Shown here one piece after another: positions 13,853-54,700 of a stretch of 64,000 nucleotides of DNA (positions are counted from its first letter, which is position 1; each line of letters starts with the position of its first letter). The stretch covers positions 1 to 64,000 of the IMG/VR virus record IMGVR_UViG_3300010883_028422. One strand, 5' to 3'. This DNA is from a virus. Under the pieces are notes generated by a model. The model was not told the DNA's origin and made no database searches. It worked only from the letters and a program-made list of their open reading frames with translations. Both the position numbers and the translations under genes were made by a program.

Positions 13853-14916
13853 GTAACATATTTAATACAAATGGTGAGCTTAATGCTGGTAACGTAAAGG
13901 ATGCATTAAGTCAGATCGTGAAGTATGCTTCTATTGTTGAAGAGCTTCAGTCTGCCAATGATGTTGCTTCTGCAGCGCCTTCTCTGAATGATTCTCAGAG
14001 AGATGATATGATTAAGCAGGCGCTTATGACACAAGAGGGCAAGATTGCTCTTGGTCAGGCAATGGCGAACCCAATCCGTAGGAACTTGGATTATCAAGGT
14101 GTAGGTCGCAAGGCCCTCGTCGTTGATCCTCTCCCACAGGGTGCGCTTCCAGTGTATGACCGAGATATTGATGTTGCAGCTGTCGTTGTTTCTAGCAACG
14201 GTTCTGCTCCAGAGTCTCGTGTCTTCGGTGACCGTGTGACTGTTCCTGAGTTTGAAGTTGTTTCAAATCCAACTGTCCGTATTGCAGAAGTTAAGCGCCG
14301 TCGTTTCAATGTAATCGATCGTGCTCAGCAGAAGGCAAGGCAGGAGATCCAGGCTCAAGAGGATGCTAACGTATTCGGAGCACTTGGTTTCTGTACTGCT
14401 GCCGCTGGTGGTGAAAACGCGCTTGTCAACCTTGACTATAATGCTGCTCCTGGTGCGATGATTGCTGCTGCTGCTGGTGGTGCAACACCAACTAACACGA
14501 CCATGCTATCAAAGGCTGGCCTGGTTGAGCTGAAGCGCTCTGTTGATCGCTGGGACCTTGTAACTTCTAAGTACTTCATGAATATCAATGAATTCACTGA
14601 TATGCTGAACTGGGAAGCTGCTGGTGGTGCTGGTGCGTCACAGGTTGATCCTGTAACGCAGAGAGAGATTCTTCAGACTGGACTTTATGGACACATTTTT
14701 GGTGCCGACATTGTCGTATCCAAGGTTGTTCCTGCACGTAGCGTTTTCGCTGTTGCAGATCCTGAGTTTGTCGGTGTCATGCCGGTCAGACAGGATATTG
14801 AGGTTCTTCCTGCAGATGAGCCCAAGCAACTTAAGCTTGGTTGGGTTGTTAGCGAAATCATCGGTATTGGTATCGTTAACCCACGTGGTGTCGCTGTTGG
14901 TCAGGTAACTGCCTAA
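13849..14916 (+). CDS. Major capsid protein, HK97 fold
   Basis: 355 aa. Segments GQAMANPIRRNLDYQGVGRKALVVDPLPQG, RRRFNVIDRAQQKARQEIQAQEDANVF (spine helix), GLYGHIFGADIVVSKVVP and LGWVVSEIIGIGIVNPRGVA match the HK97-fold layout. Followed by a strong terminator. Confidence 0.92.
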   Translation: MSNIFNTNGELNAGNVKDALSQIVKYASIVEELQSANDVASAAPSLNDSQRDDMIKQALMTQEGKIALGQAMANPIRRNLDYQGVGRKALVVDPLPQGALPVYDRDIDVAAVVVSSNGSAPESRVFGDRVTVPEFEVVSNPTVRIAEVKRRRFNVIDRAQQKARQEIQAQEDANVFGALGFCTAAAGGENALVNLDYNAAPGAMIAAAAGGATPTNTTMLSKAGLVELKRSVDRWDLVTSKYFMNINEFTDMLNWEAAGGAGASQVDPVTQREILQTGLYGHIFGADIVVSKVVPARSVFAVADPEFVGVMPVRQDIEVLPADEPKQLKLGWVVSEIIGIGIVNPRGVAVGQVTA

Positions 14917-28400: not shown

Positions 28401-30616
28401 ACAAGGTTGTTATAGATACGGGGGTTAATCTGGCTGACCATACTTCTGCTGATAGCAAACAGGCATCATCAGATTATGGAGCTTGGATAAATTTTCCCGT
28501 AAATATAACCGGAGAGGGGCACTCAACGGTCTTGGATATGATCAAGATATATAGTGACCAAGGCGAAGAGAGTGATGATAGGGCTAATTCTGGCAACCCT
28601 GACCATGATTCTTTTTTATATATTGCCGGCCCGGGATTAACTTCTACGCCAGATGGAAATTCTGATGTGCTAAGCAGTGGCTTTGTAACTCTAAGCAACT
28701 TTAGAATGAGACTCTGTGCGTTGCTTCTTCTAGATCCAAGCGTCAAAGATGGCGATGGGAATAAGCTTAACTGGGGAGTTAAAGTTGATAATGTAATATT
28801 TGATCAATCGGAAAAGTCCGGTTGGGGACAATATAATCGAGGAGTAGCGTTAACCCATGTAGATACGGCGTCGTCCACCATAGGGTCTGGCAATATAGCG
28901 ATATCAAATTGCGAATTTTTAAACTCACACATACATACTAACAATTGGGACGCCGCTGATCATAGAAATATAAGTATTTTAAACAATACCTTTAGAGGAT
29001 CTGGAGACGGGGCGGAAGATGGCGAAGACCATTATGCTGTTTACGTAGCAGGAGCTGGCCATATTTTTGATTGCGCAGATGTCGCAGCAGAAAATAATAT
29101 ATACTTCATAGGAAATGTTATTGCTGATAATCATGGTTTGACCACGCCTTATATTGATTCAGGAGGAGTTCACCCTTGGGGTGATAGGGTGAGCAGAAAC
29201 TTTATTGTCGGCGGAAGTGTTGGGATTGGAACATCTACTCCGGATGAGCTTTTGCATGTGCACTCAGAGACTGGGTCTGCGTTTATAAAATTAAGTGCAG
29301 ACCCGGATGACGATCCTGCTGGTGAGGCTTTAAATGTAGGAGTAATATTTGAACAAGATGGGGGCAATACTACGGGTGAGGTGAGGCTTGAGGGCGCAAC
29401 TGGTGCAACGTATACCGGCTCATATCAAAATGCATTATGCATAAACAAAACTGGTGGTTCTGATAATAAAGTCCAGATTGGTGCTAGTAATAGCATGGTC
29501 CTTACTGTGACAAACGATAGTGTTGGAGTCGATACAACTGCTCCTACGCGCGCGCTAGATGTTGATAAAGGCACCACAAGGTCAACTGTTTTTTATAGTA
29601 ATTCAATTGCTGGTGTTGGTGGGGTGAGCGATCTACGCAGTATCAATATGGCCGCTGGCGAGAATGGGGATTCACACAGTAGACTCTTTATAGCTGATAA
29701 CTCGGGTGACCAGGATATGGTCGTCACCAATACTAGCTATATATCACCATGCGTTGGGTTTCTTGGATGCACCGATCATGGAAATGCACACATTCAAACG
29801 GGCACTACAGCGATTATTGCATATCAACCAGCCCTCACTCTTTCTGATGATATACAAACCTCAGCAATTACTGCCACCGGACTCGTACAGGCATTGATAT
29901 GGGGCCAGTTTCTCGGAGAGCGCTGGCCTGATGATGGAATGAACCTCATCGTTGGAACGGGTAAGTATGGTGATATTTTTTATAGAGTAAGTGGTGATGG
30001 TCTTGGCGGATATAGTGTAACAAATTCTTTTACCGGCTCTCATGATACAGTATGCCCAAAGAGGGGACTTTCATCAGGCCTTATAGTGGAGTCAACCGGA
30101 GAGGTTTGGGGTAAGTTAGCAACAGGTTCTGGTGGCGGACGGTATGACGTGGGGCTTCCAAAAACTAGAATTTCAAAAACAAATGGCTCAAGAACAGTTT
30201 TTGGAGTCACAGGTGTTGATCCAAAGGAGAGCGTTCTTGCTGAAGATGATTCTGATGCTGCTGAGTTATATAAATCTGTTCCGAATCCAAACTTCGGCAA
30301 AGCGCTGCGAGGATGCTTTTCTGGTTATGCTAAAAATTTTGGTGTAAAAGATAACGAAATGCACATATCTGTTATGGCCCTGGGAGAGGGGGTTGTTTGG
30401 GTTACAAATATTAATGGCGAGATACAAAATGGTGACTATATAGAGTCATCGGTTATCCCTGGCCATGGAAGGCTTCAGGATGATGACATAATGAGATCAA
30501 GAACTGTGGCGAAGTGCACTGAGAGCATAGACTGGAATTCTATTACAGACACTATAGAGTATGAGGGTAAGCTATATAAAAAACATCTTACCTGCGCAAC
30601 CTTTCATTGCGGTTAA
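25478..30616 (+). CDS. Tailspike/appendage-like protein A: conserved anchor, beta-helix, fibre repeats and C-terminal autocleaving chaperone-like domain
   Basis: Beta-helix cap FSEIGPAIKYA...VHLKSG and repeats such as ISNCEFLNS/ISILNNTFRG. Fibre motif GGSVGIGTSTPDELLHV. C-terminal NSFTGSH...LGEGVVWVTNINGEIQNGDYIESS...DDDIMRSRTVAK, a peptidase G2-like intramolecular chaperone pattern. Confidence 0.7.
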   Translation: MPKSKYPTQLDTSIEIPVVRDNILEIGSDALNSIRSAIFQIERTLGINPQGAVGNTVADRLNKVVDGNGNILKEALSRANIVSGPISDSDISKTAAISEAKLNLNFPTQLLQDEISYINSQIDKVIALVDEINITLSAHINPFAINRHPATAISVEGVGVIPSDEGTRLLVDGSVQSIFELLYNAHINYTGSTISDENNSHLANQIFFDTSGSISSMTDAGDVQEVIEDLAASMLNFEINHQDLFHSNGILRFGRSEDPAFSGDGVEVYSEIYAGYIKTTLDGHKISKITMFDTVDSVDFNPERSDVISVSDGDLEKEMQIESIALSLDGSEIDSINVFGEFIDDSTDAAVISVVRNINQKVKDSGLLCTAGEVANDTSSYVIRVANPNSVSIISSGLNPEAFTSSVRYISLSIDNGVNISVDLYEASEARQTIDTVVARINEQAVEEHWDILAYRVDIENVTSEIAIVHNLPDTDTFSHTLKVKRSPLDNAIDSAGFVYIEDKEIVAEFGTDYYIQGRSYNGLREKVLTFDISFTTGERIIYAGSSAVNFEESGLSAGDTVTISGSSDDDGSYMVTGVRENQIELDIGQLPSGFTSPSSLGETYLFCYDNNLSLVNFNFDAISTTFGAMLFDVFMNIDQHIFAAKRLEYSVVNFSSQSLIEIVDFDGELRNDDSMSLSVYSDPIDGELYASLDGGDSIRITGMNSDVYLLSGARNIKLKILFKDEDLINAYIAANGDISTDIFCYSPINIDYNLLLSRVAFGNFKGRVIGGHGANSTRSISKLERGTVGVKDIGTSVKHKLLEQPIYDIRSNGVIHGLGVSNIQKTTADGFHFYTFDLERGVAYVMGERFELESATIITDIPSDGSVDKFFIFIDEYGNVRFEKADPACSSPTGDSEVCILAVMEDDGVTATAIDLRLFINDLDLKVLNSITVSPQPGMGHFSEIGPAIKYAKRFSEIFPNAGVPTVHLKSGVHKVVIDTGVNLADHTSADSKQASSDYGAWINFPVNITGEGHSTVLDMIKIYSDQGEESDDRANSGNPDHDSFLYIAGPGLTSTPDGNSDVLSSGFVTLSNFRMRLCALLLLDPSVKDGDGNKLNWGVKVDNVIFDQSEKSGWGQYNRGVALTHVDTASSTIGSGNIAISNCEFLNSHIHTNNWDAADHRNISILNNTFRGSGDGAEDGEDHYAVYVAGAGHIFDCADVAAENNIYFIGNVIADNHGLTTPYIDSGGVHPWGDRVSRNFIVGGSVGIGTSTPDELLHVHSETGSAFIKLSADPDDDPAGEALNVGVIFEQDGGNTTGEVRLEGATGATYTGSYQNALCINKTGGSDNKVQIGASNSMVLTVTNDSVGVDTTAPTRALDVDKGTTRSTVFYSNSIAGVGGVSDLRSINMAAGENGDSHSRLFIADNSGDQDMVVTNTSYISPCVGFLGCTDHGNAHIQTGTTAIIAYQPALTLSDDIQTSAITATGLVQALIWGQFLGERWPDDGMNLIVGTGKYGDIFYRVSGDGLGGYSVTNSFTGSHDTVCPKRGLSSGLIVESTGEVWGKLATGSGGGRYDVGLPKTRISKTNGSRTVFGVTGVDPKESVLAEDDSDAAELYKSVPNPNFGKALRGCFSGYAKNFGVKDNEMHISVMALGEGVVWVTNINGEIQNGDYIESSVIPGHGRLQDDDIMRSRTVAKCTESIDWNSITDTIEYEGKLYKKHLTCATFHCG
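25781..25846 (+). repeat. 66-bp perfect direct repeat, copy 1
   Basis: ttaaatttaaattttccaactcaactattgcaagatgaaatatcatatattaattcgcaaatagat, identical to 30932-30997. Confidence 0.95.
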
Positions 30617-39937: not shown

Positions 39938-40390
39938 ATGACTAGAAAGAAGGCTACTATAAAGTCTGACGGTGATGAGTTAGAACTTGAAAAAGAAACT
40001 GAATTGCCATTGATATCGGCACCAAACCTAAGGGACTTGATTTTTCTTGGCTCTATCGAAAAGGTTGTTGATATTGGTGGCTTTAGGTTTAAAATAAGAA
40101 CTTTAAGCGGTAGGCAGCAGAAGGCTGCGCTTGCAAAGACTATGCGGCACGATGAGGAGGAAAGACTTTCTGTCCTTAGAACCTCAATACTTGCATCAGC
40201 AATAGTTGATGTAAATGGTGTTCCGCTAGAGAATGCTTATGACGGAGATGATTTAGATACAGATTTGGACAGAAAGATGTTCGTTGTTGAAGGGCTACAA
40301 ACATCTGTTGTTGATAAATTATACTTAGCATATGATGATCTTACAAAGCAATCAAGCGCGGATGTGGAGGAAAATACGCTAAAAAAATAA
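39938..40390 (+). CDS. Tail assembly chaperone (gpG-like)
   Basis: Lies between tube and tape measure. FRFKIRTLSGRQQ and LSVLRTSILASAIVDVNGVPL pattern. Ends at an A7 slippery site. Confidence 0.8.
   Translation: MTRKKATIKSDGDELELEKETELPLISAPNLRDLIFLGSIEKVVDIGGFRFKIRTLSGRQQKAALAKTMRHDEEERLSVLRTSILASAIVDVNGVPLENAYDGDDLDTDLDRKMFVVEGLQTSVVDKLYLAYDDLTKQSSADVEENTLKK
40381..40387 (+). promoter_or_regulatory. Predicted -1 programmed ribosomal frameshift site (A AAA AAA)
   Basis: CTA AAA AAA TAA ends the chaperone. The -1 frame is open (ATA ACA TCT GAC ATA GAG TCT ATG) into ORF 40408-40830. Confidence 0.8.
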
Positions 40391-40407: not shown

Positions 40408-40830
40408 ATGTTGCGTTGGGAGCTTTGTAAGGTTTGGAAGTGCAAGGTCGATGACGCAATATTTTCTGGCATTAATCAATATCAGTGGTCCTGGTATGCA
40501 AGAATGATACTTTTAGATAGGCAGAGCGAATCTGAAAGAGATATTAGCTATATAGAATATTTAGCATCATTCTCTAATTATGAAGCCGTTAAAGCAGTCC
40601 AAGACGCAAGGTCTCAGGATGAAGAGCACACCTTTGCCTCGGACCAAGAGTTCGATGAGCGGGTTAGGACTGGAGAGTTTAAGGATAACGAATATCTTGA
40701 TGCGGTCAGGATCTCTAAGGAAAATACTAATTTTAATACTAATAGTGACCAGAAAACTTCTTCATCAGACAGATTTAGGGCGCCAAGAAGTCTGGCTTCA
40801 TTAAGAAAGGTTATAGAGGACAATGAGTAA
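40408..40830 (+). CDS. Tail assembly chaperone gpT-like segment, probably expressed as a G-T fusion
   Basis: In the -1 frame relative to the upstream chaperone, with no clear RBS before ATG 40408. Its stop overlaps the tape measure start. Confidence 0.75.
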   Translation: MLRWELCKVWKCKVDDAIFSGINQYQWSWYARMILLDRQSESERDISYIEYLASFSNYEAVKAVQDARSQDEEHTFASDQEFDERVRTGEFKDNEYLDAVRISKENTNFNTNSDQKTSSSDRFRAPRSLASLRKVIEDNE

Positions 40831-42971
40831 TGGCAGCAAATAAAATTAAACAACTTATGACCCTCCTAGACTCTGATGCTGCGGGGTCCCTAGAGAAGGT
40901 TGCGGGATCCTTCGATAAGCTCACCAGAGGTCTTACGGGGTTTTCTGACGCCGCAAATGCAGGTAGTGATAATTATCAAGCATTACTAAATGGTTTAACT
41001 AAAATTGGAGCAGCGTTTGGTGAACTAGATGAGGTCACCAAAACGTTATTTGGAGGGACATCCAAACTTGCTGGTGCATTTGGGGGGCTGCTAAAGCCAC
41101 TTAAGCTTATAAGTCAGTCAGTCGGCGCTTTTGCGCAAATCCAAAGAATATTTGGCGAGATGACCGGAGCTTTAGATTCTTTATCTGCTGGAGTTAGGGA
41201 GAATTATTCTGAATTCCATGTTTTAACAAATTCATTTGGAGGGACATACAACGAGGCCAAGAGGCTTTCTGTTTTATTTACTGAAATTCAACAAAAATCT
41301 GGCTCAAAAGAATTTGGGTTTGTAAACAGGAAGGAGCTTTTGGACACCGCAAAAGCAATGGAGTCTAGCAATCTTCAGATTTCAAGAATGTCAGAAATAA
41401 TACCTTCTGCTGGGCGAAATATGGATTTGCTTACGACATCCGTATTGCAAGCAGACGCAATGAGTATGAGTATAACTGAGCATATGGGTCTTCTATCTAG
41501 TGCTATAATGAAGACAGGCTTAAGCTCAGATGAAGCGTTTAAGCAGCTTGCTGGATTTAAAGACGTTGCGGATAAGACTGGCCTTAGCACATCAACGATA
41601 GCTACAGCTCTTCAGTCTGCTGTATCTAATTTTCAACAACTTGGTTTATCAGCAGATTTTGCAAAGCCATTAATATTGGGATTTGCAGAAAGTCTTGGCG
41701 AGGTTGGGGTCGGTATAGAAAATGCCGTTGGATTGTCACAGGCGTTAGCAAAATCGCTAGGCTCTCTTGGCGAGGATTATGGCATGTCATATCTTGTTTC
41801 GCAATTAGGAGGCCTTGACTACGGGCAGGGTGGTAACGCATTATCTTCCGGAATAGGGATGCAAAAGGCAATGCTTGATGCAGAAACAACTGGTGATTTT
41901 GAATCGCTTGGCGCGGAGCTTGCCGGTGGAATGAAAACCATGCTTGAGGGCTTTGGCGGTGGTGAAATAGTTACCGTTACAGATGCAGCAAACGACCCAA
42001 CAAAAGCTTCTGCTTTTTATACGCAACAACAGCTCTTGTCGAGTCAATTCTCAATGAGTCAGTCTGAAGCAACAAGAACTTTGGAAATGCTTAAGGGTCT
42101 TGATTCTGCCGTAGCCTCTGGGGACACAGAGACTGCCAAGAAGCTAAGGGAGCAGATCGCGGATCAGAAGTCTGGTAGGAATGATACGATTTCTTTGATG
42201 GAAAAGCAGAATATTCATACGGCAGGGATATTTGCTCAAGCCCAAATGCAGACAAGAATGCAGGCGATGATGCTTAGGGATGAGGCCGGGGGCGAGATGC
42301 TCGCACAGATGAATGCAGAAGCTACCGAAATGGCTAATGAATATTTAAAGGCAACCGAGGGGGGATTGAAGCCAGAATATATAAAGAATGCTGCTGATGC
42401 TCTAAATCAGGCATTCCAGAAGAGTGATGCCTTCGCAGGCAAGGGCAAGGGTGCGGATGCAAGAGGTACATTTACTGAGACTGGAATTGAGTTAGTTGGA
42501 AGTGCTGTCGAGGAGGCTGTGCAATATAAGCCCGAAGATGTGAGAAAGGAATTCGAGGGCTTTTTTGATGATCTTAAGAAAGCAATTTGGGGCTCCGCTA
42601 CTTTAGTGGCAGGCTCTAATGTTGGCGCGGTGGTCTCCGGCAGCGGTGTGCCGATTGTTTTAGGCCCAGTTCCGGCGCCCGGCAGCGCCGGAGGAAGTGA
42701 TATACGTTTGAAAGAAGATATAACACATATTGGAGTTTCGGAGTCTGGGTTGAATATTTATACATTTAGATATATTGGAGGCGGCATACTTTATCAAGGA
42801 GTTATGGCTCAAGAGCTGCTTGTGTCAAACCCAGAGGCAGTTCTTGTTGGTGATAATGGATATTACATGGTTGACTATAGCCTTATTGATGTTGATTTCT
42901 TCCCGGTTGAAATAAATAATATTTTACTAGAAAACAATAGTACATTAGGATATACAAATGCAAGGATATAG
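40830..42971 (+). CDS. Tape measure protein with C-terminal peptidase S74-like chaperone domain
   Basis: Ala/Gly/Leu/Met-rich amphipathic helical sequence after the G/GT pair. From 42696: SDIRLKEDITHIG...NIYTFRY...YQGVMAQEL...PEAV...YYMVDYSLI. Confidence 0.82.
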   Translation: MAANKIKQLMTLLDSDAAGSLEKVAGSFDKLTRGLTGFSDAANAGSDNYQALLNGLTKIGAAFGELDEVTKTLFGGTSKLAGAFGGLLKPLKLISQSVGAFAQIQRIFGEMTGALDSLSAGVRENYSEFHVLTNSFGGTYNEAKRLSVLFTEIQQKSGSKEFGFVNRKELLDTAKAMESSNLQISRMSEIIPSAGRNMDLLTTSVLQADAMSMSITEHMGLLSSAIMKTGLSSDEAFKQLAGFKDVADKTGLSTSTIATALQSAVSNFQQLGLSADFAKPLILGFAESLGEVGVGIENAVGLSQALAKSLGSLGEDYGMSYLVSQLGGLDYGQGGNALSSGIGMQKAMLDAETTGDFESLGAELAGGMKTMLEGFGGGEIVTVTDAANDPTKASAFYTQQQLLSSQFSMSQSEATRTLEMLKGLDSAVASGDTETAKKLREQIADQKSGRNDTISLMEKQNIHTAGIFAQAQMQTRMQAMMLRDEAGGEMLAQMNAEATEMANEYLKATEGGLKPEYIKNAADALNQAFQKSDAFAGKGKGADARGTFTETGIELVGSAVEEAVQYKPEDVRKEFEGFFDDLKKAIWGSATLVAGSNVGAVVSGSGVPIVLGPVPAPGSAGGSDIRLKEDITHIGVSESGLNIYTFRYIGGGILYQGVMAQELLVSNPEAVLVGDNGYYMVDYSLIDVDFFPVEINNILLENNSTLGYTNARI

Positions 42972-43914
42972 AAAGACATTAAAGTTTTTAGTTCCAAGGA
43001 ACAAAAATGCTATTGGAAATTTCTCACTAGAAAATAGAGATATTGTTCCTATTTATATAAATCCACAGTCTATTAACATACGTGAAAGAAAGATTATAAA
43101 TAAACAACTAACCAAGGGCGGATATGTGATCCAGTATTGGGGAGAGGAGCTTCCGGTTATGTCTGTAAATGGAACAACTGGCTCCTCGGGTGTTGAGGGT
43201 ATCAACTTATTAAGAGATGTATATAGAAATGAGCAAATTGCAGTTAGAAGACAGCTTTTGGAAAAAATGGAAAATCAAACAGAGTCGATGATTGGCAATT
43301 TAACAGGACTTGCAGAGATTGGATCTAAAGCAACAAGTTTTTGGGGCGGCTTAAGCAGCGCATTTGATAATGGTGGCTTTACAGATTTGATTGGCTCACA
43401 ATGGCTTGCTGGGTCAAAAAGCGTTGTTGATTCCTGGGTTAGTGCGTTTCAAGGCACTGCTGATGATGCTGTCCAAAGAACTGTTTTGAACCCATCTCTT
43501 GGCGCATTTGCAGTAAGTATGGATGTTTATTTTCAAGCCGAAAGGTTTCGTGGATATTTTTCAAATTTTAGCTCAAGTGAAAGAGCGGGCACGCCTGGAT
43601 TATTTGAATATAATTTTGAATTTATAATAACAAAAAGAATGGGCAAGAGAAATAACTTTATGCCATGGCATAGAAGCCCCGTTGACGCAACCGGAGACCC
43701 AATACCAGCGTCAATACCTGCCGGAAAGCAGGTTGGAGGCATCGACCATGGCTTATCATATCCTCCAACATATGATTCTACTGCTATTGTCAGGTTCGAT
43801 CCAAATCCTGATAGCTTAGTGACCGAAGGTGCTTTTGCTGGAGAGTCGATACCTGATGCTGCTGAGGTTGAGGTTGCTATTGATAGACGCAGTAGTATAA
43901 CAGAAGGAGATTAA
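42958..43914 (+). CDS. Tube initiator / baseplate-tube junction protein (gp48/gp54-like)
   Basis: IYINPQSINIRERK...YVIQYWGEELPVMSVNGTTG and FRGYFSNFSSSE...FEYNFEF, a tube-like fold. Directly after the tape measure gene. Confidence 0.65.
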   Translation: MQGYRKTLKFLVPRNKNAIGNFSLENRDIVPIYINPQSINIRERKIINKQLTKGGYVIQYWGEELPVMSVNGTTGSSGVEGINLLRDVYRNEQIAVRRQLLEKMENQTESMIGNLTGLAEIGSKATSFWGGLSSAFDNGGFTDLIGSQWLAGSKSVVDSWVSAFQGTADDAVQRTVLNPSLGAFAVSMDVYFQAERFRGYFSNFSSSERAGTPGLFEYNFEFIITKRMGKRNNFMPWHRSPVDATGDPIPASIPAGKQVGGIDHGLSYPPTYDSTAIVRFDPNPDSLVTEGAFAGESIPDAAEVEVAIDRRSSITEGD

Positions 43915-43916
43915 TT

Positions 43917-46900
43917 ATGGCAATATCAGACCCTTCCGCAATGTCAGGCGGGATTGCAGACCGTCTCGCTGCAGGCTTAGAGCAGTATTCCGACTATGTT
44001 ACGTCAAATGAAGGAGAGACTAGCTATGAGGAGGTAGGGCAAGAGGTCCAAAAGATCATAAGTGAGAAGACAAATAGGGTTGATTTGGTTGAAGATGGCG
44101 TATCAACATATTTGAATCAAAATAGATCTGAATCGATTAGACCTAATACTAGAAATATAGTCAGTATGGCTCCAGAAGCTGTAATTTTAATAAAGAAAAA
44201 AGCCTTTTCTGCGTTAAAATCAACAAACGACTTACAATGGATGGATAAAACTGAAAAGTTTTTACTTAGAGCTACCAAGACGCTCTTTGCTTACAAGGTA
44301 ACTCAAATAAGAGCGTACGAGGCTTTGACCAAGCTGGATGACTATTATGAAAAGAATAGGTCTGTAAATTTATTATTATTTTCAGAGTTTCTTTTCAACA
44401 TGAAGATGCTGGCGTTACCCGAAAGTACAAATGACCAGCAGTCTAATTATCTTATTGAACAGTTTACGCTTAGGTACGGGCCATCTGAGGCTTGGAGTGC
44501 TGCTCAGCGTGATGAGTTTCAGAGAGAGATAGGCGCTATAAGTGAGAGTCAGCTTAGCCTTTCTATTGATGGGCGAATAGACCTGCTTGTATCAAATGTA
44601 AGAAGAAATATGGGCGATATAGACTATGGCGCGATGGATGTATCTGAGTTTGCGGCCATAACTAGTATATTAAAAAGAAACGCATTTGGAGCGGACTCTG
44701 GCCTCACAACATGGATTGTTGACCCAAGCAATACCGATAATTTTACTACCGGGCCTGGAACTGGAGTTATTGAGCTAACGCTTTTTAATTCATTTTCTAC
44801 AAACTGCTCAAATACGCCAACTCCAAGCCAAACTTCTTTTACAATAGAAGATCCATACAGAATTACAGACATTATAGAGGATGACATAGAGATAGCTATA
44901 AATGAGGCCCTAAGCGGCTCTATAGGGATACTCAGTGCTATGAGTGGGCAAAGCGGCGTCATGGCTAGTCAAAAGTCAAGCGTGCCCCTTATAGACGGCT
45001 CTATGATTGGCTCATCTATGCTTGAGGTTATGGGGCTCGGAAGTATGGATGACACCCTTGATATAGATTACGTGAGAGATAGGCTTAGAACTTTTTATCT
45101 AGGAAGGCCATTTATAAATGCCGCAGATAGTGTAAATATTTTTATTCGTGGTAATAGAATGACTGATGATTATTCTAATTCTGGTGCAGCGCTAAATTCA
45201 CTATCTGTTATGGATAGTTCAGAGTTTGCAGTTGACGAAGTAATGCTTAAAGCAGAAAAGAAATTATATGCAGGAAATGTGAACGAAGATGTTCTTGATT
45301 TAGATGCATATATAAGAATGAGGGACAAGTCCTCTTTGTCAATGGTGCATGTTTTTGGTGGATTTGTTACAAATACATCTTCTTCATTTAATGGAGGCAA
45401 AAACACTGTTACCGTTAATTGTGTTGACAATATGGAGTGGCTAAAGTGGTCCAGGGTGATAGGTCAGCCAGCATTAAATGATCCGCAGGGTTTGCTCGAA
45501 GATCCCGTCACTCCTTTTGATATAAAAACAGATGCTTCTGGGTCAATGGTTTTTGAAGACGCACCAGAGCTTTTATATGAAAATAAAATTTTAATTGGAA
45601 CTGGGCTTTTGACATATAATTCTGGTATTTTAAATGGGCAATTTGCATCAGAAGGAAATATAGTACAGGGTCAATATAATCTTGGCGGTTCACTTTTTGG
45701 TGCTATGAAAGTGCAGGCTCCAAGTGGATTTGTTTATAGGTGGAAGAGTGGAATAGTCACTGCAACCGCAGGTCTTACATCGAATAATCCTATGTTTAAT
45801 GACTGGAGTAATATCAGTCAATATACCGAGGGGTATGGTGTTTCGATAGGTGATGATGTATTTAATAACTTAGATACTGCAAATATATTGAGCATGTTAA
45901 TTGTTGGTCAGCCATACAATGTTGATTCGTTTATACGTCAAGCATATGAGATACAGGGTATATCTGGAACAAATGCTTCGACTCTTAGTTCTTTAGACCC
46001 GCTTTTTTCTGTTCTTAATGCGACTAGAAAGCAAAATTTAAAATTTGGAAACTTTAAGCCATACCGAGTTATAACATTAAGTGCCAGTTCCGCAGAAAGA
46101 CTTGCTTCAGATAGTGTATTAAAAACTCAAACAAATACTAAGATAGAGCAACTTCAGAAGAGAAAGGCTGAGCTTAGCAGCATGATAAGGCAGCTAAATT
46201 CAAAAAGCACTAGTGGTGCATCTAAAAGCTCCTCGATTACATCATCTTTATTTTCAGAAATAAAGTCCATTGATGCTGGAATACAAGAGCAGCTTGCAAG
46301 AGCAAATATGGATAATAACAGCTTAAATAACGCTGGATTCGATACTAGTTTTAATTTATTTGGTGAAACTCAAGATATGGCAAATTCTGGTAATTACGAA
46401 GCTGATCAGAATATATCTAGAGCAATGACGCAAGTCGGCGCACAAAGAAGGGTTGATGACGTTAGGATGAATAATGATCAAAATCTTTTTATGATATCTG
46501 ATCAATATGATAGCAACACCGAGATAAAGCAGTATATTTTTCAGCTAAAAAAGGGCGGTTGGAATTTATTTAGTGGACAATTCTATACCTCATATGAGAA
46601 GTGTGTAGAGGCATCGGCTATAATTGATTTAGAATTCTTTTGTAATACAGCTGGGCATTTGGAACTCAGACCTCCACAGTGGAATAGAACCCCGCTTAGT
46701 GTGTTAAAAGATTATCTTGAATTATCAAAATCAGAAAATAAAAATATTATTCCTGAGTTTTTACAAAATTTATTTCAAACCAGAATACAATCTTTGAGAA
46801 GAGAGGTTCATGGTTTAAATGTAAAAATTGCGCTAACATCATTGTTGCTGGGCTTTTTCCCAGATAAATCAATAATTCCTGGTGTACCAATTAGTGGTCC

Positions 46901-49193
46901 AGACTCATTAAAGTTTTTTGGAATTTTAGTAGAAGACACGGGCTCCTCCTCTGGCGGCTCTTTTGACGGGGTTAATGCTTCGTTATATACAGAACGTCAG
47001 GGGTTTGGCGATAAGGTTCTTGGTGCATTAACAAAGGGTGCGAATCTTATAGATGCGGGAAATGACAGCGGTACCCTTGGATTTTCTATGGATATTAATG
47101 GTGGAGAGCCAGAGGGCGATATACTTCTTGGTGATACAGAGACTTTAATTGGTGATTTTGATCCAATATCTCAAGAAGTTATGTCTATATCGGGTGGTGG
47201 AAGGAATATAATAGGTGAGTTGTTTCCGACAAAATTAGTAAGCGGGCCACCAGACAATGTGAGCACCGGAGGAATGTTCGGGTCCTCATCTAAGGTGAAC
47301 GTTGTTGCGGTAGCAAGAATATCTGTAGTGGAGGGTATACGAAGATCATTTAAGAAGCTATCTGGAATAGACCCATTGTCGAGTTTTGCGAGCGGAAGAT
47401 CTATTGGGCCGGATGATTTTGCATCTGGAAATACCGCAATACCTGTTGATAGATTGTCTTCTTCAATTACAAATTCTATGAAGGCTCAAAATCAAATGAA
47501 TGAGTCTATACAGGTGACTAAAAAGTTTGAACTACTAAAGGTTCTCGAGAATGCAATTTCTGGCAGAGATAGTAAGGTTTCCACGTTAAAAAGAAATATT
47601 GCAAAACAAGAAGAGCTGGAGGAGGTCGAAAGGGCTCTTTCTAGCGGATACGAGGACCCATTTGACCAGATGCTTGAGCAGGCAGATGACCCAGATGCCC
47701 TTATTACAAACGAAAGTGGATGGCTCAATGTGGCAAAGGGCATATATGATGTAACAAAGCAGTCCATAGATATATTGACGGGTGACGCAACAGAATCAAC
47801 TTTGTGGGATCACTTGATTATAGATGATACGAGGAACTACCTTGGACCGGGGTCTGGGAAGAGATTTGTTATAAAAAATCATAATATTATACGTGCAGAT
47901 TTCAAAGAAAGACCTCCGGATTTTACAAGGATAAACGTTGTTGGTGATGCTCCAATTTATGGTGATGCATACAGAAAGTCGTTTCAGGGTGTTGCATTTT
48001 GGTGCGGAGCAACTGACTTTGATCTATGGCGACAGTACGGATACAAGCAAGGCGGAGATGTTAAGCTTAATTTTGCCAGCAACGCAGAGCTTCAATGTAA
48101 GCCGTATGCTCTTATGCAGCTTCAAATGCAGCGAGCAAAAATAAACTCTGGTTCAATAACTTTGGTTGGAAACGAATATTATCAGCCGGGAGATGTTATT
48201 TATGTTCAATATAAAAACTTACTCTACTATGTTACCCAGGTAAATCACTCCTTTCAGATGGGTGGTTCGTTTACCACAACGCTTGCGCTAACAAATGGCC
48301 ATCCAGTTGGAACATATTTGCCAAGCCCATTTGATATAATAGGACAACAATTTGTTGGGAATCCATTGCATGAAAATATATTAGTTCATAAAAATGTAAC
48401 AGGTGATGATGGCTATATTCCATTGCAGCCAGATTGCGCTATTATATTTCCCAGCAACACGGGGTCGGGAGAGGGCGATAATAAAATAACTGGAGATAAT
48501 TTAAGTACATTGTTAGATTATCAGAATAATCAGCAGAGATATTATAATATGATGTTGGATCTATCATCAAAAAGTGTTATGACGGACGATACGTATGTTG
48601 TGATAAGAGGGTTTGTTAATAATAATACGGCAAAGGCAGAGGTCCAGGATAGAATGAAGATTATGCGGGACTTGTTGGTAGACCCCGTGCAGATAACACA
48701 GGGTCAGTTCTCTTCGATGGGCGGAGATGATACTCTTGATCTTCTTAGGAGTATGGGCGGCGGTGCAAAAAATAGTACAAAAGGTATTGTCACAATGATA
48801 CTTCCAAACGGCTCTTTGGCTCGCTCTGTACCTGAAGATAAAATAATAATGCAGACCGTTAATTTATCAGGAGGAAATAAAACTGTTCAATATGATATAG
48901 AGTGTATGAACAGGGGTATATTCAATAGATATGAAATTGAGCAAGGAAACGTTTCTAGCTCTGCAGTATCAGATATATCGTCTGACTCCAGAGGTATGTT
49001 TTCATCCAGCTCCTTTTGGCTTAGTGAGGATGAAGAGAAGAATATAAAAGAAGCAACTATAAAGGAGTCAAAGAACAAATTTCCAAATGGTGGCCCAAGT
49101 CAAGGTACATGGCTTCATTTTAGGGATGCGCTTGCCGATGGTGATAACGCGGCAGTGCATAGAGTCATAGAGGTTGGAATTATAAACTTATAA
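43917..49193 (+). CDS. Baseplate hub protein (gp27/gp44/gpD-like), greatly enlarged
   Basis: VFGGFVTNTSS...VTVNCVDNMEWL and C-terminal SGSITLVGNEYYQPGDVIYV...YYVTQVNHSF...FTTTLALT are hub-family patterns, separated by long insertions. Confidence 0.72.
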   Translation: MAISDPSAMSGGIADRLAAGLEQYSDYVTSNEGETSYEEVGQEVQKIISEKTNRVDLVEDGVSTYLNQNRSESIRPNTRNIVSMAPEAVILIKKKAFSALKSTNDLQWMDKTEKFLLRATKTLFAYKVTQIRAYEALTKLDDYYEKNRSVNLLLFSEFLFNMKMLALPESTNDQQSNYLIEQFTLRYGPSEAWSAAQRDEFQREIGAISESQLSLSIDGRIDLLVSNVRRNMGDIDYGAMDVSEFAAITSILKRNAFGADSGLTTWIVDPSNTDNFTTGPGTGVIELTLFNSFSTNCSNTPTPSQTSFTIEDPYRITDIIEDDIEIAINEALSGSIGILSAMSGQSGVMASQKSSVPLIDGSMIGSSMLEVMGLGSMDDTLDIDYVRDRLRTFYLGRPFINAADSVNIFIRGNRMTDDYSNSGAALNSLSVMDSSEFAVDEVMLKAEKKLYAGNVNEDVLDLDAYIRMRDKSSLSMVHVFGGFVTNTSSSFNGGKNTVTVNCVDNMEWLKWSRVIGQPALNDPQGLLEDPVTPFDIKTDASGSMVFEDAPELLYENKILIGTGLLTYNSGILNGQFASEGNIVQGQYNLGGSLFGAMKVQAPSGFVYRWKSGIVTATAGLTSNNPMFNDWSNISQYTEGYGVSIGDDVFNNLDTANILSMLIVGQPYNVDSFIRQAYEIQGISGTNASTLSSLDPLFSVLNATRKQNLKFGNFKPYRVITLSASSAERLASDSVLKTQTNTKIEQLQKRKAELSSMIRQLNSKSTSGASKSSSITSSLFSEIKSIDAGIQEQLARANMDNNSLNNAGFDTSFNLFGETQDMANSGNYEADQNISRAMTQVGAQRRVDDVRMNNDQNLFMISDQYDSNTEIKQYIFQLKKGGWNLFSGQFYTSYEKCVEASAIIDLEFFCNTAGHLELRPPQWNRTPLSVLKDYLELSKSENKNIIPEFLQNLFQTRIQSLRREVHGLNVKIALTSLLLGFFPDKSIIPGVPISGPDSLKFFGILVEDTGSSSGGSFDGVNASLYTERQGFGDKVLGALTKGANLIDAGNDSGTLGFSMDINGGEPEGDILLGDTETLIGDFDPISQEVMSISGGGRNIIGELFPTKLVSGPPDNVSTGGMFGSSSKVNVVAVARISVVEGIRRSFKKLSGIDPLSSFASGRSIGPDDFASGNTAIPVDRLSSSITNSMKAQNQMNESIQVTKKFELLKVLENAISGRDSKVSTLKRNIAKQEELEEVERALSSGYEDPFDQMLEQADDPDALITNESGWLNVAKGIYDVTKQSIDILTGDATESTLWDHLIIDDTRNYLGPGSGKRFVIKNHNIIRADFKERPPDFTRINVVGDAPIYGDAYRKSFQGVAFWCGATDFDLWRQYGYKQGGDVKLNFASNAELQCKPYALMQLQMQRAKINSGSITLVGNEYYQPGDVIYVQYKNLLYYVTQVNHSFQMGGSFTTTLALTNGHPVGTYLPSPFDIIGQQFVGNPLHENILVHKNVTGDDGYIPLQPDCAIIFPSNTGSGEGDNKITGDNLSTLLDYQNNQQRYYNMMLDLSSKSVMTDDTYVVIRGFVNNNTAKAEVQDRMKIMRDLLVDPVQITQGQFSSMGGDDTLDLLRSMGGGAKNSTKGIVTMILPNGSLARSVPEDKIIMQTVNLSGGNKTVQYDIECMNRGIFNRYEIEQGNVSSSAVSDISSDSRGMFSSSSFWLSEDEEKNIKEATIKESKNKFPNGGPSQGTWLHFRDALADGDNAAVHRVIEVGIINL

Positions 49194-49291: not shown

Positions 49292-51703
49292 ATGATTGGC
49301 GAATTTTTTGAAGCAAAAATAGTTAAGGTTGGTAAGAGGGGTAGGAAGGCTGGCACCTGCACCTTGGTCTCCATTGTTAATGGAGAGGCTGGCAAGACGA
49401 TTGATGATGTCCCACTTCCACAGCAGTCGGGCAACTCTCACGTTGGAACGTTTGTTGACTATCCAAAGGGAACTAGAGTCCTTGCGTTTTTTGCCCCGTC
49501 TGTAACTAGGCATTCAGTCACAATATTGAATGTATTTTCCGAATCGCATCTTCCTGGAGATGGCACCCTAGATCCGATGGACATGGATGCAAACATTCTT
49601 AGCAATCCAAGAATGGGCGATTCTGTTTCGTCTCCAGACGCCATAATGAGAGGTTCCGCAGGCTCAGATGTTGGAGTTTATAAATCAGGGGATGTAAGGC
49701 TATCTACGAGCAGGGGGAGCGGTCTTTTCCTGAGAAGGCGAAATTGGGGTGATAGCATGTACCTGTCATCTCATATTATGATAGGTCATAGCAACTCTCA
49801 TAGCTCTGTATATGGAAACGTGATAAGGGTTTTTGGAGAAGATAGAGCTGCTCATCAGCCAGGAGAGTTTTATCAAAACGATCTTAAATGTGACTTTAAT
49901 CAAGATAATCCATCGGGAATGCATGAAGTTGGGATGTTCCCATTAAGCAAGTCTTGTGACACAAAAGGTGTTATGGATTATGAGAGAAACCCTAGAAGGG
50001 CCGAATATGTTTTAAAGATAAAAGAGTATGCTGAGCAATCTGTATTTAGGGGCTTTGATAGCGAAGTTAAAATGCAGAGTGGTGATTCGAGCATAGTTGA
50101 TAATGCCCATACTCACTCCAGGGATCTTAGCACCACAAATAGGCTGCATATGCCGGAAAATGAGCTAATAGAAATAATAGCGGGAAATCTTGTTGATATA
50201 AATGGAAATATATTAGATATAAATTATAACAATGTTGTTCTTGGCGATATAAATGGCGCATATCCAAGGGGTGACAACAGGCCACTAGAAGAGATCATAG
50301 GCGTTGATAGCATGTTAAAAAGCAGGCGTGAGATAGGATATCATTTTCAATTATCTACAAATGTTTTATCAACACATTCAAGCACAAATACAACAAATTT
50401 TACATTAGATATAGATAAAGAGGGCGTTTTAAAAATTAACGTTCCAAAGTCATCAAGCACTGGTAATGTTCCGTTTGTCTCTACGGCAGACTACCTGGGT
50501 CCAGGCGATAGCGTTCGGGTAACGTATGATAATCCAAGCAAGAGTGAGCCCGTACCCATAACCCTGTGGAGTGATATTCTTAAGACAAATGATACAGATG
50601 ATGATGGCACAGTAGACAAAGATGTTCAAACTATCGGTGGAGTCTTCAGAAAGCCTCTGCTGCCCAGAGCAAAGACTCTTATTAAAAGAGATACTGGAGT
50701 TGAGTATCAAAATCCTGATGAAAATCAATATTTTCCACCAACAAATAGTGGCGCAACAAAGTCTAGAATTAGGGTTAATACAACAAAATATCATAATATG
50801 TATGCGGCAGCGGAAAGAGCTATAGCCAATAGAATTGCGACAATCGAAATGCATAGAATAGGAAATAAAAGCCTGGTGAAGAGCAGCCCGTATGGGAAGC
50901 AATTTGAGGTGCTTCCTCTAACGAAATTTAACAAGGATGAGCAGCTTGACCCCCCATATCCTTACGATAGAAGCGTTGTAACTGTAAATCCCGGCTTTCC
51001 GGCCATAAACCCGGGAGGCAAAGATTGCGTTGTCGCCGGGAGTGAAGTTACTGAGTGGGAGACGTATTCTAATAGTTATACAACAACTACAGACAAGGAT
51101 GGCCCAAGGCCGGAGCAGGCTGCCAAAGGTGATGGATTTTCTAAAACATTAGATCCTGGTGGTAAAAGTGCAAATATAAACTTTGAAGGCAGCATTGAAA
51201 TGTCTGTTGGAGAAGACAATTATGATGCAAAAAGCATTGTTTTAGATACGGCAGGCTCTCTTATTGCGTGGCTTGGTAAAGATCGCGCGGGAAGGAGCGC
51301 TGTTTTACAGACAGATGGGGAGGTTGTAATTAATATCGGAGGAAGTTACGGAGACCCTGGAAATTCTATGGAATTCACAAAAATAAGTGATAGAAAGCAG
51401 TTTGAAAGTGGGTTTAATCCAGGAAGGCTTGATATAAAAGTTAATGTCGGAGATAAAGGATTTGTCGGAACATCCGGATCTAGTGTTGATGGCTCGAATG
51501 TTTATAGAACTGGAGACTATACTATATCAATAAGCGATAAGGGGCTGGTTATCGCCGGGTGCAACACTGGTGCGCCAATGATTATAAGAAATGATGGAAA
51601 TATAAGTATAGAGGCGACAAACAAGCTTAAGCTTTATGGTGGACACTCAATAGAGCTTATTGATGGAAAGCAGAAGCCAAAGACTCTTAAGGTGGACCAC
51701 TAA
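49292..51703 (+). CDS. Baseplate central spike protein (gp5/gpV-like)
   Basis: N-terminal OB-fold-like FEAKIVKV...TIDDVPLP...YPKGTRVLAFF. C-terminal beta-strand repeats (ISISDKGLVIAG...IIRNDGNISIEATNKLKLYG). Follows the hub. Confidence 0.65.
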   Translation: MIGEFFEAKIVKVGKRGRKAGTCTLVSIVNGEAGKTIDDVPLPQQSGNSHVGTFVDYPKGTRVLAFFAPSVTRHSVTILNVFSESHLPGDGTLDPMDMDANILSNPRMGDSVSSPDAIMRGSAGSDVGVYKSGDVRLSTSRGSGLFLRRRNWGDSMYLSSHIMIGHSNSHSSVYGNVIRVFGEDRAAHQPGEFYQNDLKCDFNQDNPSGMHEVGMFPLSKSCDTKGVMDYERNPRRAEYVLKIKEYAEQSVFRGFDSEVKMQSGDSSIVDNAHTHSRDLSTTNRLHMPENELIEIIAGNLVDINGNILDINYNNVVLGDINGAYPRGDNRPLEEIIGVDSMLKSRREIGYHFQLSTNVLSTHSSTNTTNFTLDIDKEGVLKINVPKSSSTGNVPFVSTADYLGPGDSVRVTYDNPSKSEPVPITLWSDILKTNDTDDDGTVDKDVQTIGGVFRKPLLPRAKTLIKRDTGVEYQNPDENQYFPPTNSGATKSRIRVNTTKYHNMYAAAERAIANRIATIEMHRIGNKSLVKSSPYGKQFEVLPLTKFNKDEQLDPPYPYDRSVVTVNPGFPAINPGGKDCVVAGSEVTEWETYSNSYTTTTDKDGPRPEQAAKGDGFSKTLDPGGKSANINFEGSIEMSVGEDNYDAKSIVLDTAGSLIAWLGKDRAGRSAVLQTDGEVVINIGGSYGDPGNSMEFTKISDRKQFESGFNPGRLDIKVNVGDKGFVGTSGSSVDGSNVYRTGDYTISISDKGLVIAGCNTGAPMIIRNDGNISIEATNKLKLYGGHSIELIDGKQKPKTLKVDH

Positions 51704-54700
51704 TGAGCGCCCTTACCAGTGGATTTGTCGGGATAAAGTTATCTTACAATGTTGTAGGTGATACCAAGGTAACGGGATGCGGATCCGATTGTGTTGAGGC
51801 AGCAGAGGTTGGCGAAGATCTTGTTATGCTTTACCCAACAAAGCATGATATTAACTGGGGCGTAACCGGCAAGGTTCCCATACCTTTATCTGGCGGGGTT
51901 ATATTAAAAATACCGGGGCCAAAAGATGAGCCGAATCATGCGGCAAATGATGCTGATAGACTAAATGCACTTTTATCAGCAATAAGAGATGATGGGATGC
52001 TAGCAGCGCACCTTGCCGTAGAGGAAGAGGAAGAGGAAGTCGGGGGGAGTGGCGGCAGCTTGCTTAATCGCGGAACAACTCTTGGCTCGAGTGAGGCCGA
52101 GACCGAAGACTACCCCGCGTATTTTCTGGTCAACCAGGCGAAAAAAGAGCTGAATAGGGTTTTGTATAACATTTCAAAGAATGAAGGCCTTACTACTGGA
52201 TACAAAAACTTAGAAGATTTAAAAATTATAATAGGCACAAGCACTATTGAAGACCCGTCAAAAATTGAGACGGGCAATGATTGCGCTATTAGTTCTGATA
52301 TAAAGTCATGCTTTGAGTTAACATATATACCATTAGAAGTTATATGTGGAACAAAAAGTATAGCCCAAATGTTTGGTGAAAGATTCAAGAATGTTTATGG
52401 AGTCTGCGGGAACTCATATGATAGAATCGCAGATTATATGAATTCTGACGAACATTCAGGCCCGGATGATTTTGAAGGAGACAAGGTTCTTACGCAAGAT
52501 GGAGAGATTACTTCGGCTGTTGCAGATTTAATGGGGAAGCTTGGTGGTGGAATTGATATACTTGCGCTTTTGGCAGGATTATTTAATTTAGACTTTTTCC
52601 CATTAGACATTGAGGCAATTATTATGGCTCTTGCGGGGGATCTTGTGGCGGAAATTGCCGGCGCTATAGGTATAGAGTTTGGAGAGATGGAGTTAGCTGA
52701 AAAAAAGAGAATGCTTTTGGCACAGCTATTAGACGTGCTTAAAGAGACGCAAATTAGAGAGCTTTTGCTTGAATTTTTTCCAATACAAAATGTTGAAGAA
52801 GAGCTTGTTAGGGGCACCGGCAAGATCGCCCTAGATCGTCGTGGGTTTTATACGATGCACAAAGGGGAGATTTTTATAAAACTTCCAAACATGTCGTGTA
52901 TGGACGCCGCCGGGTTTGTGCCCGCAGGGGTTTTTTATGATACTGTAGATGGTAAAGCTGTTTTAAATAGAGTCTTCTTTATAGAGCAACACTATCAGAA
53001 AAAGATTACAAGGTGGGGTTTCCTCCCCCTGCCTCCTCCAGCTCCATTGATAGAGAATGGTAATGACATTACGTTTCCAGAGACAAGTGATGTTGAGTTT
53101 TTAGTTGACGGCATAAATCTCCCCGAGGGCCAGGGGAAGCATACATACTTTTTATCGCCAATAGCAGACCCCGTAGGAAAGCTCGATGTCAATCAGTTTC
53201 AATGCAATAAAGAGGGTAGGGAGCTATTTACTGCTCCATTAATTACAAGATTTATATTTGCACCAAGTGAAGCGAAGGCCGGCCCTTATGATGATTACCA
53301 AGCCTCTGTAGGCATAGCTATATTTGACGCTATGATCCGCAAGAGCGTAGGCCGCTATGGCGCTATGGGCGATTTGTTTGAGACATCTACGACTTTTGGC
53401 GAGAACAAGGATGGGGATAAGACGCTAATAATAAAGAAGCAAAATTTGGACGGTGCCGCTGCAGAGTCTGTAAGAAAGCTGGGCGATGCACAGATGTTGG
53501 TTGCGTTTATGCTTTATGAACTAGGAGACCTTGCTGGTGCGGAGAGCACAGTGAACACAGCTCAGGGGTTTTATGACACGGCAGAGTTTATTCTTGGGAA
53601 GGTAGATGAAACAGAAGAAATTAGGATTTTAAATATTGGATTTCCACTGACGGATCCAAGTCAGACCTTTGCCGGGGATGCAAAATATCTAATTGGCGAA
53701 AAAAATAGGGCAGACTTAATTCTTGCTCCGCTTCGAGTTGCGATGTCTGGATCGACAAAGAACAATAGGTTGCATAACAATCCTGGGATAAATGGACTAA
53801 GCAATTTATATTCATCAAATAGACCAAAGTTTTGTTCTCTTCCCAAAGATGGCGATTATGCTAGTTCACACATACCTGAGTTCTTTTGGATACCATGCTC
53901 TGAAGAAGGCAAGGTTGGAGAGAGCATAAAGTTAAAAGTAAAGGCTGATGAATTAAAGCTTAGATTTGTAAAAAGAGAGGTAAAGTTTGCTTTATACGCT
54001 GTAGACATAATGGGTCAAATAGCAAGAGCTCCAAATGGGTTAATATCTTTTGACTCTCCCGCACCATCTATAGAGGAGGTCCTTCCGTCAGGGTGCGCTG
54101 GCGGCGGAAGAATAACCACTGATACATTTTTCACGTTAAGAATTGTTGGCTCTGACCTAGGAAATGTAAAGACGATTGTGTTTGACGGACCAAACCAAAA
54201 GATTACATTTTCTTCTTCTAGTGGTGGTGATTATAATGTAAGTGTTGACGATGAGACAATACAGATAACTTTTGCTGGAAATGCATCTCCGGTAAAGTCA
54301 ACCTTTGGAAGCTGGGGCTTTACGAATGGTGAGTGGGAATGCACCCTGATTGATGGTGATAGAAGGGAGTCTAAGCAAGAGGTGTCATTATATGTTAGTC
54401 TTGCTGATGAAGAGCTTCCGAGTACATGCTCATCTAGCCTTGCATATATACCGCATGATTCATTTTCTGCACCAGGATTTGATGATGAAATTTATGGGGT
54501 TCCATTATATTTGGATGAGAGCAATAATGCAAATATAGAGATAGGGTCTAAATCTAAATTATTTAGTGGCAAATATGACGGTCTTCATGCATATTTAGCC
54601 GTACAGATTGGCGCCGGTGTTGACGAGAGATGCGATACATTTTCATTTGCAGAAGACAGGATCGAGGTATTTATAAATATTGATGGAAGAAACCAGAGGG

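Follow-up and report, generated by a model that had tools for sequence, protein, structure and literature searches.

A putatively self-cut and optional S74 module at the C-terminus of a marine phage tape measure protein

Can the ruler of a phage tail carry its own protease, and what would such a protease do there? This question is raised by a stretch of viral DNA of 64,000 nucleotides (positions 1 to 64,000 of IMG/VR virus record IMGVR_UViG_3300010883_028422; hereafter the window), in which an open reading frame (ORF) of 713 residues at 40830-42971 had been read in a first-pass annotation as a tape measure protein that ends in a self-cutting S74 domain. Removal of a C-terminal piece of the tape measure protein is a known theme in tail maturation, as in the conversion of lambda gpH to gpH*. 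We know of no case in which such processing has been attributed to a built-in S74 autoprotease, and studies of S74 modules have to our knowledge been confined to fibres, spikes and MyRF. A full-text literature search returned no description of a fusion between a tape measure protein and S74, a result which does not prove that the fusion is unpublished.

Our analysis points, with some reserve, to the following answer as the probable one: the tape measure protein of this large, uncultured, marine phage with a contractile tail carries a C-terminal short-form S74 module on a flexible Gly/Pro linker, and this module is self-cut and optional. In the mechanism that we propose, the module would fold when, in tail initiation, the chains of the tape measure protein meet with their C-termini at the tail-tip end. 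The Gly622-Ser623 bond would then be cut by the Ser623-Lys628 dyad, so that the 91-residue module would leave and a 622-residue mature ruler would remain, with an end that would match the natural end of relatives which never had the module. Among close relatives, the module would be exchanged or lost as a cassette, the upstream limit of which coincides exactly with the cut site.

The S74 domain and its junction

The profile PF13884 (Peptidase_S74) aligns with residues 623-672 across its positions 1-58 of 58 and scores 22.8 bits for the isolated C-terminus of 133 residues and 24 bits in a six-frame search of the genome, compared with a curated cut-off of 22 bits. The module also matches phrog_6121 (E 8.8e-16), and PF13884 is matched by all 15 members of a further alignment (A3; best E 1.8e-10). 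Moreover, the Ser, Asp, Arg and Lys of the opening motif (Ser623, Asp624, Arg626 and Lys628) are invariant across an alignment of 53 homologous domains. Because the full model is covered, phrog_6121 is matched and the motif is invariant in all 53, the S74 match is well beyond chance, and the search with PF13884 that the first-pass annotation had proposed as a check bore it out. The features that it had listed were likewise all found as described, namely the linker, the Ser at codon 42696 and the Lys in the SDxRLK arrangement (the motif reads SDIRLKEDI), and YTFRY, QGVMAQEL, PEAV and VDYS further downstream.

The counterparts of Ser623 are S911 in endoNF, S587 in MyRF and S1264 in T5 pb1, and the same spacing between Ser and Lys is seen in S911/K916, S587/K592 and S1264/K1269 (PMC8326128, PMC4690869). 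In these three proteins the Ser/Lys pair cuts on the N-terminal side of the Ser after the domain trimerises (PMC8326128, PMC4690869), and it is from homology to this pair that the cut between Gly622 and Ser623 is predicted. The module thus resembles K1F endosialidase (3GW6), GA-1 gp12 (3GUD), T5 pb1 and MyRF (7DC3; MEROPS S74, PF13884) in its C-terminal site, its S-D-x-R-x-K opening and its Ser/Lys(+5) dyad.

Modelling of the module with AlphaFold2 (AF2) and the 53-row alignment gave a small beta-rich domain with short helices, for which the predicted local distance difference test (pLDDT) reached 91-96 over residues 625-690. In a comparison with 48,161 chains using VIA-align, MyRF's ICA (intramolecular chaperone auto-processing) domain, 7DC3, came first, with Z 3.6 and a root mean square deviation of 2.2 Å over 52 residues; solved ICA domains are intertwined trimers and our model is a monomer. 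The beta-rich core of the module aligns with the ‘donut’ part of the MyRF ICA domain. At such a low Z, this ranking agrees with an S74 fold but does not decide the matter. The domain is a short-form S74 and not a classical full-length C-terminal intramolecular chaperone domain (CIMCD). It comprises 91 residues, whereas classical CIMCD or ICA domains have about 120-150; it is without their long C-terminal helix or coiled coil, only ~25 low-confidence residues following the S74 core; and it is borne on an alpha-helical ruler via a disordered linker instead of on a triple beta-helix or fibre. In contrast to phage-type CIMCDs, it also has no conserved upstream basic sensor residue. Like the full-length homologues checked, in which 65-90 residues follow the Ser, the module is C-terminal (residues 623-713 of 713). 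The homologous domains as such stop about 65-75 residues past the Ser, and an extra tail of ~20 residues, of low pLDDT, is present only in the copies fused to tape measure proteins. At E<=1, the 135-kb record contains no other S74 copy that could have served as a donor.

A fusion of this kind might be an assembly chimera or a read-through artefact, in which an unrelated S74 fragment has become attached to a tape measure gene. The sharp change in composition at the junction and the low depth of 2-5x in the runs examined would fit such an origin. However, in two runs that belong to different studies, contigs span position 42696 with zero differences (X1, 42300-42731; X2, 42627-42799), and two further independent assemblies (L001/P0002 and P0003) contain this fusion with identical frame and gene overlap. 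Given the bridging contigs and this recurrence, the junction is no assembly chimera; this explanation is effectively refuted and the fusion stands.

The ruler, its relatives and exchange of the module

According to DSSP, the AF2 model of the carrier is helical over residues 2-590, with pLDDT 85-95 for residues 120-470. Its fold matches in BFVD are nearly all annotated as tape measure or minor tail proteins (E 1e-9 to 1e-4), with low TM-scores of 0.2-0.36. A search of 1.8 billion cluster representatives recovered a tape measure family of 99 proteins at E<=1e-30, typically 580-715 residues long; 19 of the 46 family members that were aligned match PF20155 TMP_3 (best E 5.7e-07), and a search of the PDB with the family profile finds coiled-coil chains. 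Furthermore, the region between the tube and baseplate genes holds no other suitable candidate for a ruler. On the basis of gene order, the all-helical model, the BFVD matches and TMP_3 in 19 of 46 relatives, we accept with high confidence that the ORF is a tape measure protein, which agrees with the first reading of its N-terminal part. Like TMP_3 tape measure proteins, it is helical, takes this place in the gene order and is a candidate for determining length. By the rule of thumb of about 0.15 nm of tail per tape measure residue, 622 residues would correspond to a tail of roughly 90-100 nm.

How widespread is the fusion within this family? We checked 106 members, comprising the 99 cluster representatives (P0027-P0125) and seven closer hits (P0001-P0007), and found the SDxRxK motif only in P0002 and P0003. 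The window protein falls in the cluster of P0002, and the module is present in 1 of ~100 family clusters. P0002, which is locus L001, and P0003 are 65% and 61% identical to the window protein, respectively, and both carry the module together with the same 14-nt overlap on the next gene; the search for the same fusion in related genomes, suggested at the outset, was thus successful. No module is present in P0001 (88% identical, 620 residues), P0027 (88%), L002 (69%, 607 residues, stop verified) and P0004 (55%), and all four terminate within a few residues of the predicted Gly622-Ser623 cut. The ends of P0001 and P0003 rest on protein records, L002 and read contigs. One such contig, from a P0004-type seawater relative (run X7, contig record 12, window 42956-43160), reads ...GVGGR and a stop in its loose end before 42956, directly followed by the ATG of the next gene, and the seawater metagenome that yielded this module-less version also has near-identical window sequence. 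In L002, the ATG of the 318-residue gene lies 19 nt past the tape measure stop. A metagenome scan yielded one further close relative, L005, which is truncated at residue 578 and does not extend to the junction.

The module lacks a stop codon of its own, its frame being closed within the next gene. Its last four codons (NARI plus stop) overlap the start of the 318-residue gene, ATG-CAA-GGA-TAT-AG, at 42958-42971, and the conserved C-terminal NARI is the start region of that gene in another frame. Since the module-less relatives end at the predicted cut, the predicted mature product of the window phage would equal their native protein, and these natural ends lend indirect, comparative support to cleavage. 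With nearby relatives that are without the module and finish at the place of its predicted cut, it has the look of a cap that is optional, exchangeable and self-removing.

A maximum-likelihood tree of the tape measure body groups the window with the module-less P0001 (support 100/100), L002 joining them with weaker support (80/82), and places P0002 and P0003 in a sister clade; the module carriers are therefore not monophyletic on this tree. At the DNA level, the linkers of the window and L001 are unalignable (22-43% identity), whereas precisely at the Ser codon identity climbs to 92-95%, remaining over 90% for ~150 nt. The number of synonymous substitutions per site (dS; Nei-Gojobori) is 0.31 in the module, compared with saturated values of 1.2-3.8 in the tube, chaperone, tape measure body, 318-residue and 1758-residue genes. 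Similarly, 83% of conserved residues in the module are encoded by the identical codon, compared with 45-67% in the flanks (Fisher p 2e-5 to 2e-7), a comparison that includes the tube gene, which has the same GC content at third codon positions (GC3) and 99% protein identity. The jump in identity at the Ser codon and the low dS relative to the flanks indicate that the module is a recently exchanged cassette. Either it would have moved between lineages, or it would have a more recent ancestor than its flanks and have been lost twice. With a ratio of nonsynonymous to synonymous substitutions (dN/dS) of about 0.24, the module is under purifying selection. An exact 26-nt word from the S74 sequence was found in IMG/VR only in the contig of L001, and no donor was identified. 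Nucleotide-level constraint was considered as a cause of the low dS and rejected (RNA fold z -0.73; one promoter-like site compared with 2.6 expected; no overlapping ORF of >=60 residues).

The first-pass annotation had deduced a domain graft from a shift in GC content. The graft itself is borne out by the patchy distribution, the relatives that stop at the cut site, the breakpoint at the Ser codon and the low dS, but the GC argument does not hold. GC content is 0.646 in the linker, 0.341 in the S74 part, 0.445 in the tape measure body and 0.409 in the window. The GC-rich part is the Gly/Ala/Pro/Val linker, and GC3 of the S74 part (0.24) is near that of neighbouring genes (tube 0.27, 318-residue gene 0.29).

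Weighing the readings

Several observations weigh against a self-cutting module that acts in tail assembly. Cleavage, oligomerisation and a role in assembly are what we infer from comparison with characterised S74 proteins. In the context of the whole protein, the PF13884 score drops to 19.5 bits, below the cut-off, and the pass is thus marginal. All Z values of the VIA-align comparison are below 5, with the phage structures 3GUD and 3GW6 at ranks ten and nineteen of 48,161; Foldseek found nothing significant in the PDB with either the whole model or the domain model, and phmmer and hmmsearch of the PDB gave no significant S74 structure (best 8jov, E 0.15). The AF2 models contain no long C-terminal helix or coiled coil, short helices at 660-666 and 695-701 being the only ones. 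A C-terminal trimeric coiled coil is the main driver of trimerisation in MyRF and is central to the chaperone of T5 pb1 (PMC8326128, PMC4690869). The self-trimerising ruler put forward in the first-pass annotation would have to do without this element. Upstream of Ser623 lies a disordered linker of 32 residues and not a triple beta-helix, and no conserved basic ‘sensor’ residue comparable to R897 of endoNF or R1250 of pb1 was found among the three carriers. Finally, most relatives do without the module, so any benefit to assembly is dispensable, and for this reason the module may be either a dispensable assembly aid or a tolerated self-removing passenger.

The latter possibility, in which a mobile S74 cassette spreads by recombination among tail genes and is tolerated for its scarless self-cutting, with no part in assembly, would fit the sporadic distribution (1 of ~100 family clusters, and relatives of 88% identity without the module), the recombination signature in the module DNA, the missing stop codon with the run into the next gene, and the occurrence of the same short domain on many unrelated tail proteins such as hubs, spikes, fibres and Brucella phage Tb gp23. 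The module is nevertheless kept in at least three diverged genomes, with tape measure bodies 61-65% identical, at a dN/dS of about 0.24, although selection for self-removal alone would give the same signal. We consider a pure passenger unlikely, though a serious contender. We give less credit to a retained C-terminal knob, that is, a domain which is uncleaved, or cleaved and still bound, and which plugs the baseplate hub, provides a docking piece within it or enters the host envelope together with the ejected tape measure. Here the short form without a coiled coil would fit, as would the upstream folding ‘sensor’ Arg of phage CIMCDs that is not evident here (PMC4690869) and the closest homologues in cultured phages, which are ‘virion structural proteins’ among internal or ejection-type podovirus genes. 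A purely structural knob, however, would have no need of a dyad in which Ser and Lys are invariant in 53 of 53 homologues, relatives that lack the domain stop where the cut is predicted, and cleavage of MyRF is independent of upstream stalk contacts (PMC8326128). We regard such a knob as improbable.

Much less probable still is that the ORF encodes some other helical internal tail or baseplate protein, which would make the fusion uninformative on ruler maturation. In its favour, the window protein itself has no tape measure match in Pfam or PHROG, its TM-scores against tape measure models are low, and AF2 models residues 120-470 with confidence as a compact array of helices and not as one long rod. 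This explanation has to contend with the canonical position after a frameshifted chaperone pair, in an order kept in four loci, with TMP_3 in the relatives, with a BFVD list dominated by tape measure proteins and with the lack of any other suitable candidate between the tube and baseplate genes. The self-cut, optional module on a tape measure protein thus remains our preferred reading. A more far-reaching version of it is possible, and we advance it tentatively: the tape measure protein would mature autocatalytically by its built-in S74 protease, which would also set the register of the C-termini at the tail tip, and the scarless cassette would be passed among tail genes and from one related phage to another through recombination at its boundary, the cut site. 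If true, this would offer a simple model for C-terminal processing of tape measure proteins, and ‘self-removing’ domains would form a general group of assembly aids that phages can freely exchange.

The way in which tape measure chains come into register and the trimming of their C-termini in tail initiation are poorly understood. In contrast to lambda gpH-type processing, the protease module in the window is part of its substrate and is optional among close relatives, and the locus thus represents a ruler with a predicted built-in, optional autoprotease. Its natural variants with and without the module differ by little else (88% identity, with the end at the cut site), which makes a clean comparison possible. 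Moreover, a large survey could not confirm recent mosaicism in this protein class (PMC10684548), and the locus provides a well-resolved example of sub-gene cassette exchange within the class covered by that survey. Since the phage has not been cultured and most relatives lack the module, the practical consequences are modest.

The surrounding locus and other carriers of the short domain

The virus record that holds the window comprises 135,425 bases, and its CheckV completeness of 24% suggests a very large genome. All public runs in which the window stretch was found are marine or seawater metagenomes, and a megablast of 15 kb against deposited phages gave zero matches. The features of the locus are listed in Table 1. 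The genes are arranged in the order major head, sheath, tube, chaperone pair, tape measure ORF, 318-residue gene and very large baseplate-region genes, and the order around the tape measure from sheath to baseplate is common to three related loci (L001, L002 and L003). The tail tube protein is 96-99% identical to the copies in L001 and L002. A slippery heptamer is present at the equivalent site in four related loci (A AAA AAA in the window and L001, A AAA AAC in L002 and A AAA AAG in L003), and the chaperone pair is a gpG/gpGT-type frameshift.

Table 1. Coordinates of the tape measure ORF, its parts and the neighbouring genes in the window
Feature	Position	Strand	Basis or remark
Major head protein	13849-14916		phrog_2522, E 2.8e-71
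Tail sheath gene, 1089 residues	35937..39206	+	phrog_2839 (E 8e-14) and phrog_279 (E 5e-13), ‘tail sheath’; weak Pfam Phage_sheath_1C
Tail tube gene, 202 residues	39224..39832	+	Placed after sheath gene; phrog_985, E 9e-11
Upstream tail assembly chaperone ORF, gpG-like, 150 residues	39938..40390	+	Weak phrog_2992 match, E 0.0045
Slippery heptamer A AAA AAA, -1 shift into ORF 40408-40830	40381..40387	+	Read directly, immediately before the stop of ORF 39938-40390
Downstream chaperone ORF, gpT-like part, 140 residues	40408..40830	+	-1 frame relative to 39938-40390; synteny kept in L001, L002 and L003
Tape measure ORF, 713 residues	40830-42971	+	Program ORF translation
Tape measure body, residues 1-590, all alpha-helical	40830..42599	+	AF2 model, BFVD matches, family TMP_3 matches
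Gly/Pro/Ala/Val linker, residues 591-622, predicted disordered; end ...SAGG is the predicted mature C-terminus	42600..42695	+	pLDDT <50 over 586-632; GC 0.646
S74 core, residues 623-672	42696..42845	+	PF13884-matched part; 22.8-24 bits
Ser623 codon, predicted nucleophile, first residue of module	42696..42698	+	Aligns with PF13884 position 1; invariant in 53 homologues
Lys628 codon, predicted general base (Ser+5)	42711..42713	+	Invariant in 53 homologues
Rest of module, residues 673-713, and stop codon	42846..42971	+	Last 14 nt overlap start of next gene
318-residue gene, putative tube initiator or baseplate-proximal protein	42958..43914	+	Weak PF23980 Phage_tail_tube_init (E 0.063), phrog_1011 (E 1.7e-4)

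The window also contains giant structural ORFs of 1712-3317 residues at 1-9954, 25478-30616, 43917-49193 and 51703-59163. Outside 1-9954 and 51703-59163, the two largest, which were not searched, these have no significant match in PHROG or Pfam, the ORF of 1758 residues giving a weak match to phrog_14367 (E 0.0048).

The nearest homologues of the domain are 45-61% identical and are located at the C-termini of proteins unrelated to the window tape measure family, including hub/spike proteins (Phage_base_V, phrog_13211), fibres, Brucella phage Tb gp23 and similar podovirus ‘structural proteins’. With the short S74 domains on the ‘virion structural proteins’ of ~40-kb podoviruses (phrog_6121, phrog_4287; Brucella phage Tb gp23) the module shares the short length (65-90 residues after the Ser) and the invariably C-terminal position, whereas the podovirus and metagenomic hub, spike and fibre carriers themselves are unrelated to the window family. 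Among the matching deposited phage records, the 60 listed of 76 include none with a tape measure annotation, and a search for longer S74 carriers yielded one fibre-like protein of 1397 residues and no tape measure protein.

Among the other carriers, P0008 (408 residues) combines an N-terminal glycine-zipper/hydrophobic region (weak match to the tape measure family phrog_167, E 3.7e-5) with an Ala/Gly/Pro low-complexity stretch and a C-terminal short S74, and is possibly an independent fusion to an ejection protein or a tape-measure-like protein. P0173 is an unusual carrier, in which the short S74 at the C-terminus is joined to a kinase-like N-terminal domain (phrog_18508, E 7e-22). Many matches, such as P0146, P0166, P0167 and P0152, are small stand-alone proteins of 110-165 residues, in which an N-terminus resembling a signal peptide or transmembrane segment is followed directly by the short S74, and these may not be phage tail proteins. 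Furthermore, P0126, P0127, P0134, P0141 and P0143 carry two tandem copies of the short S74, recognised from two stretches of match, and in P0141 a second SDVRLK follows the first domain.

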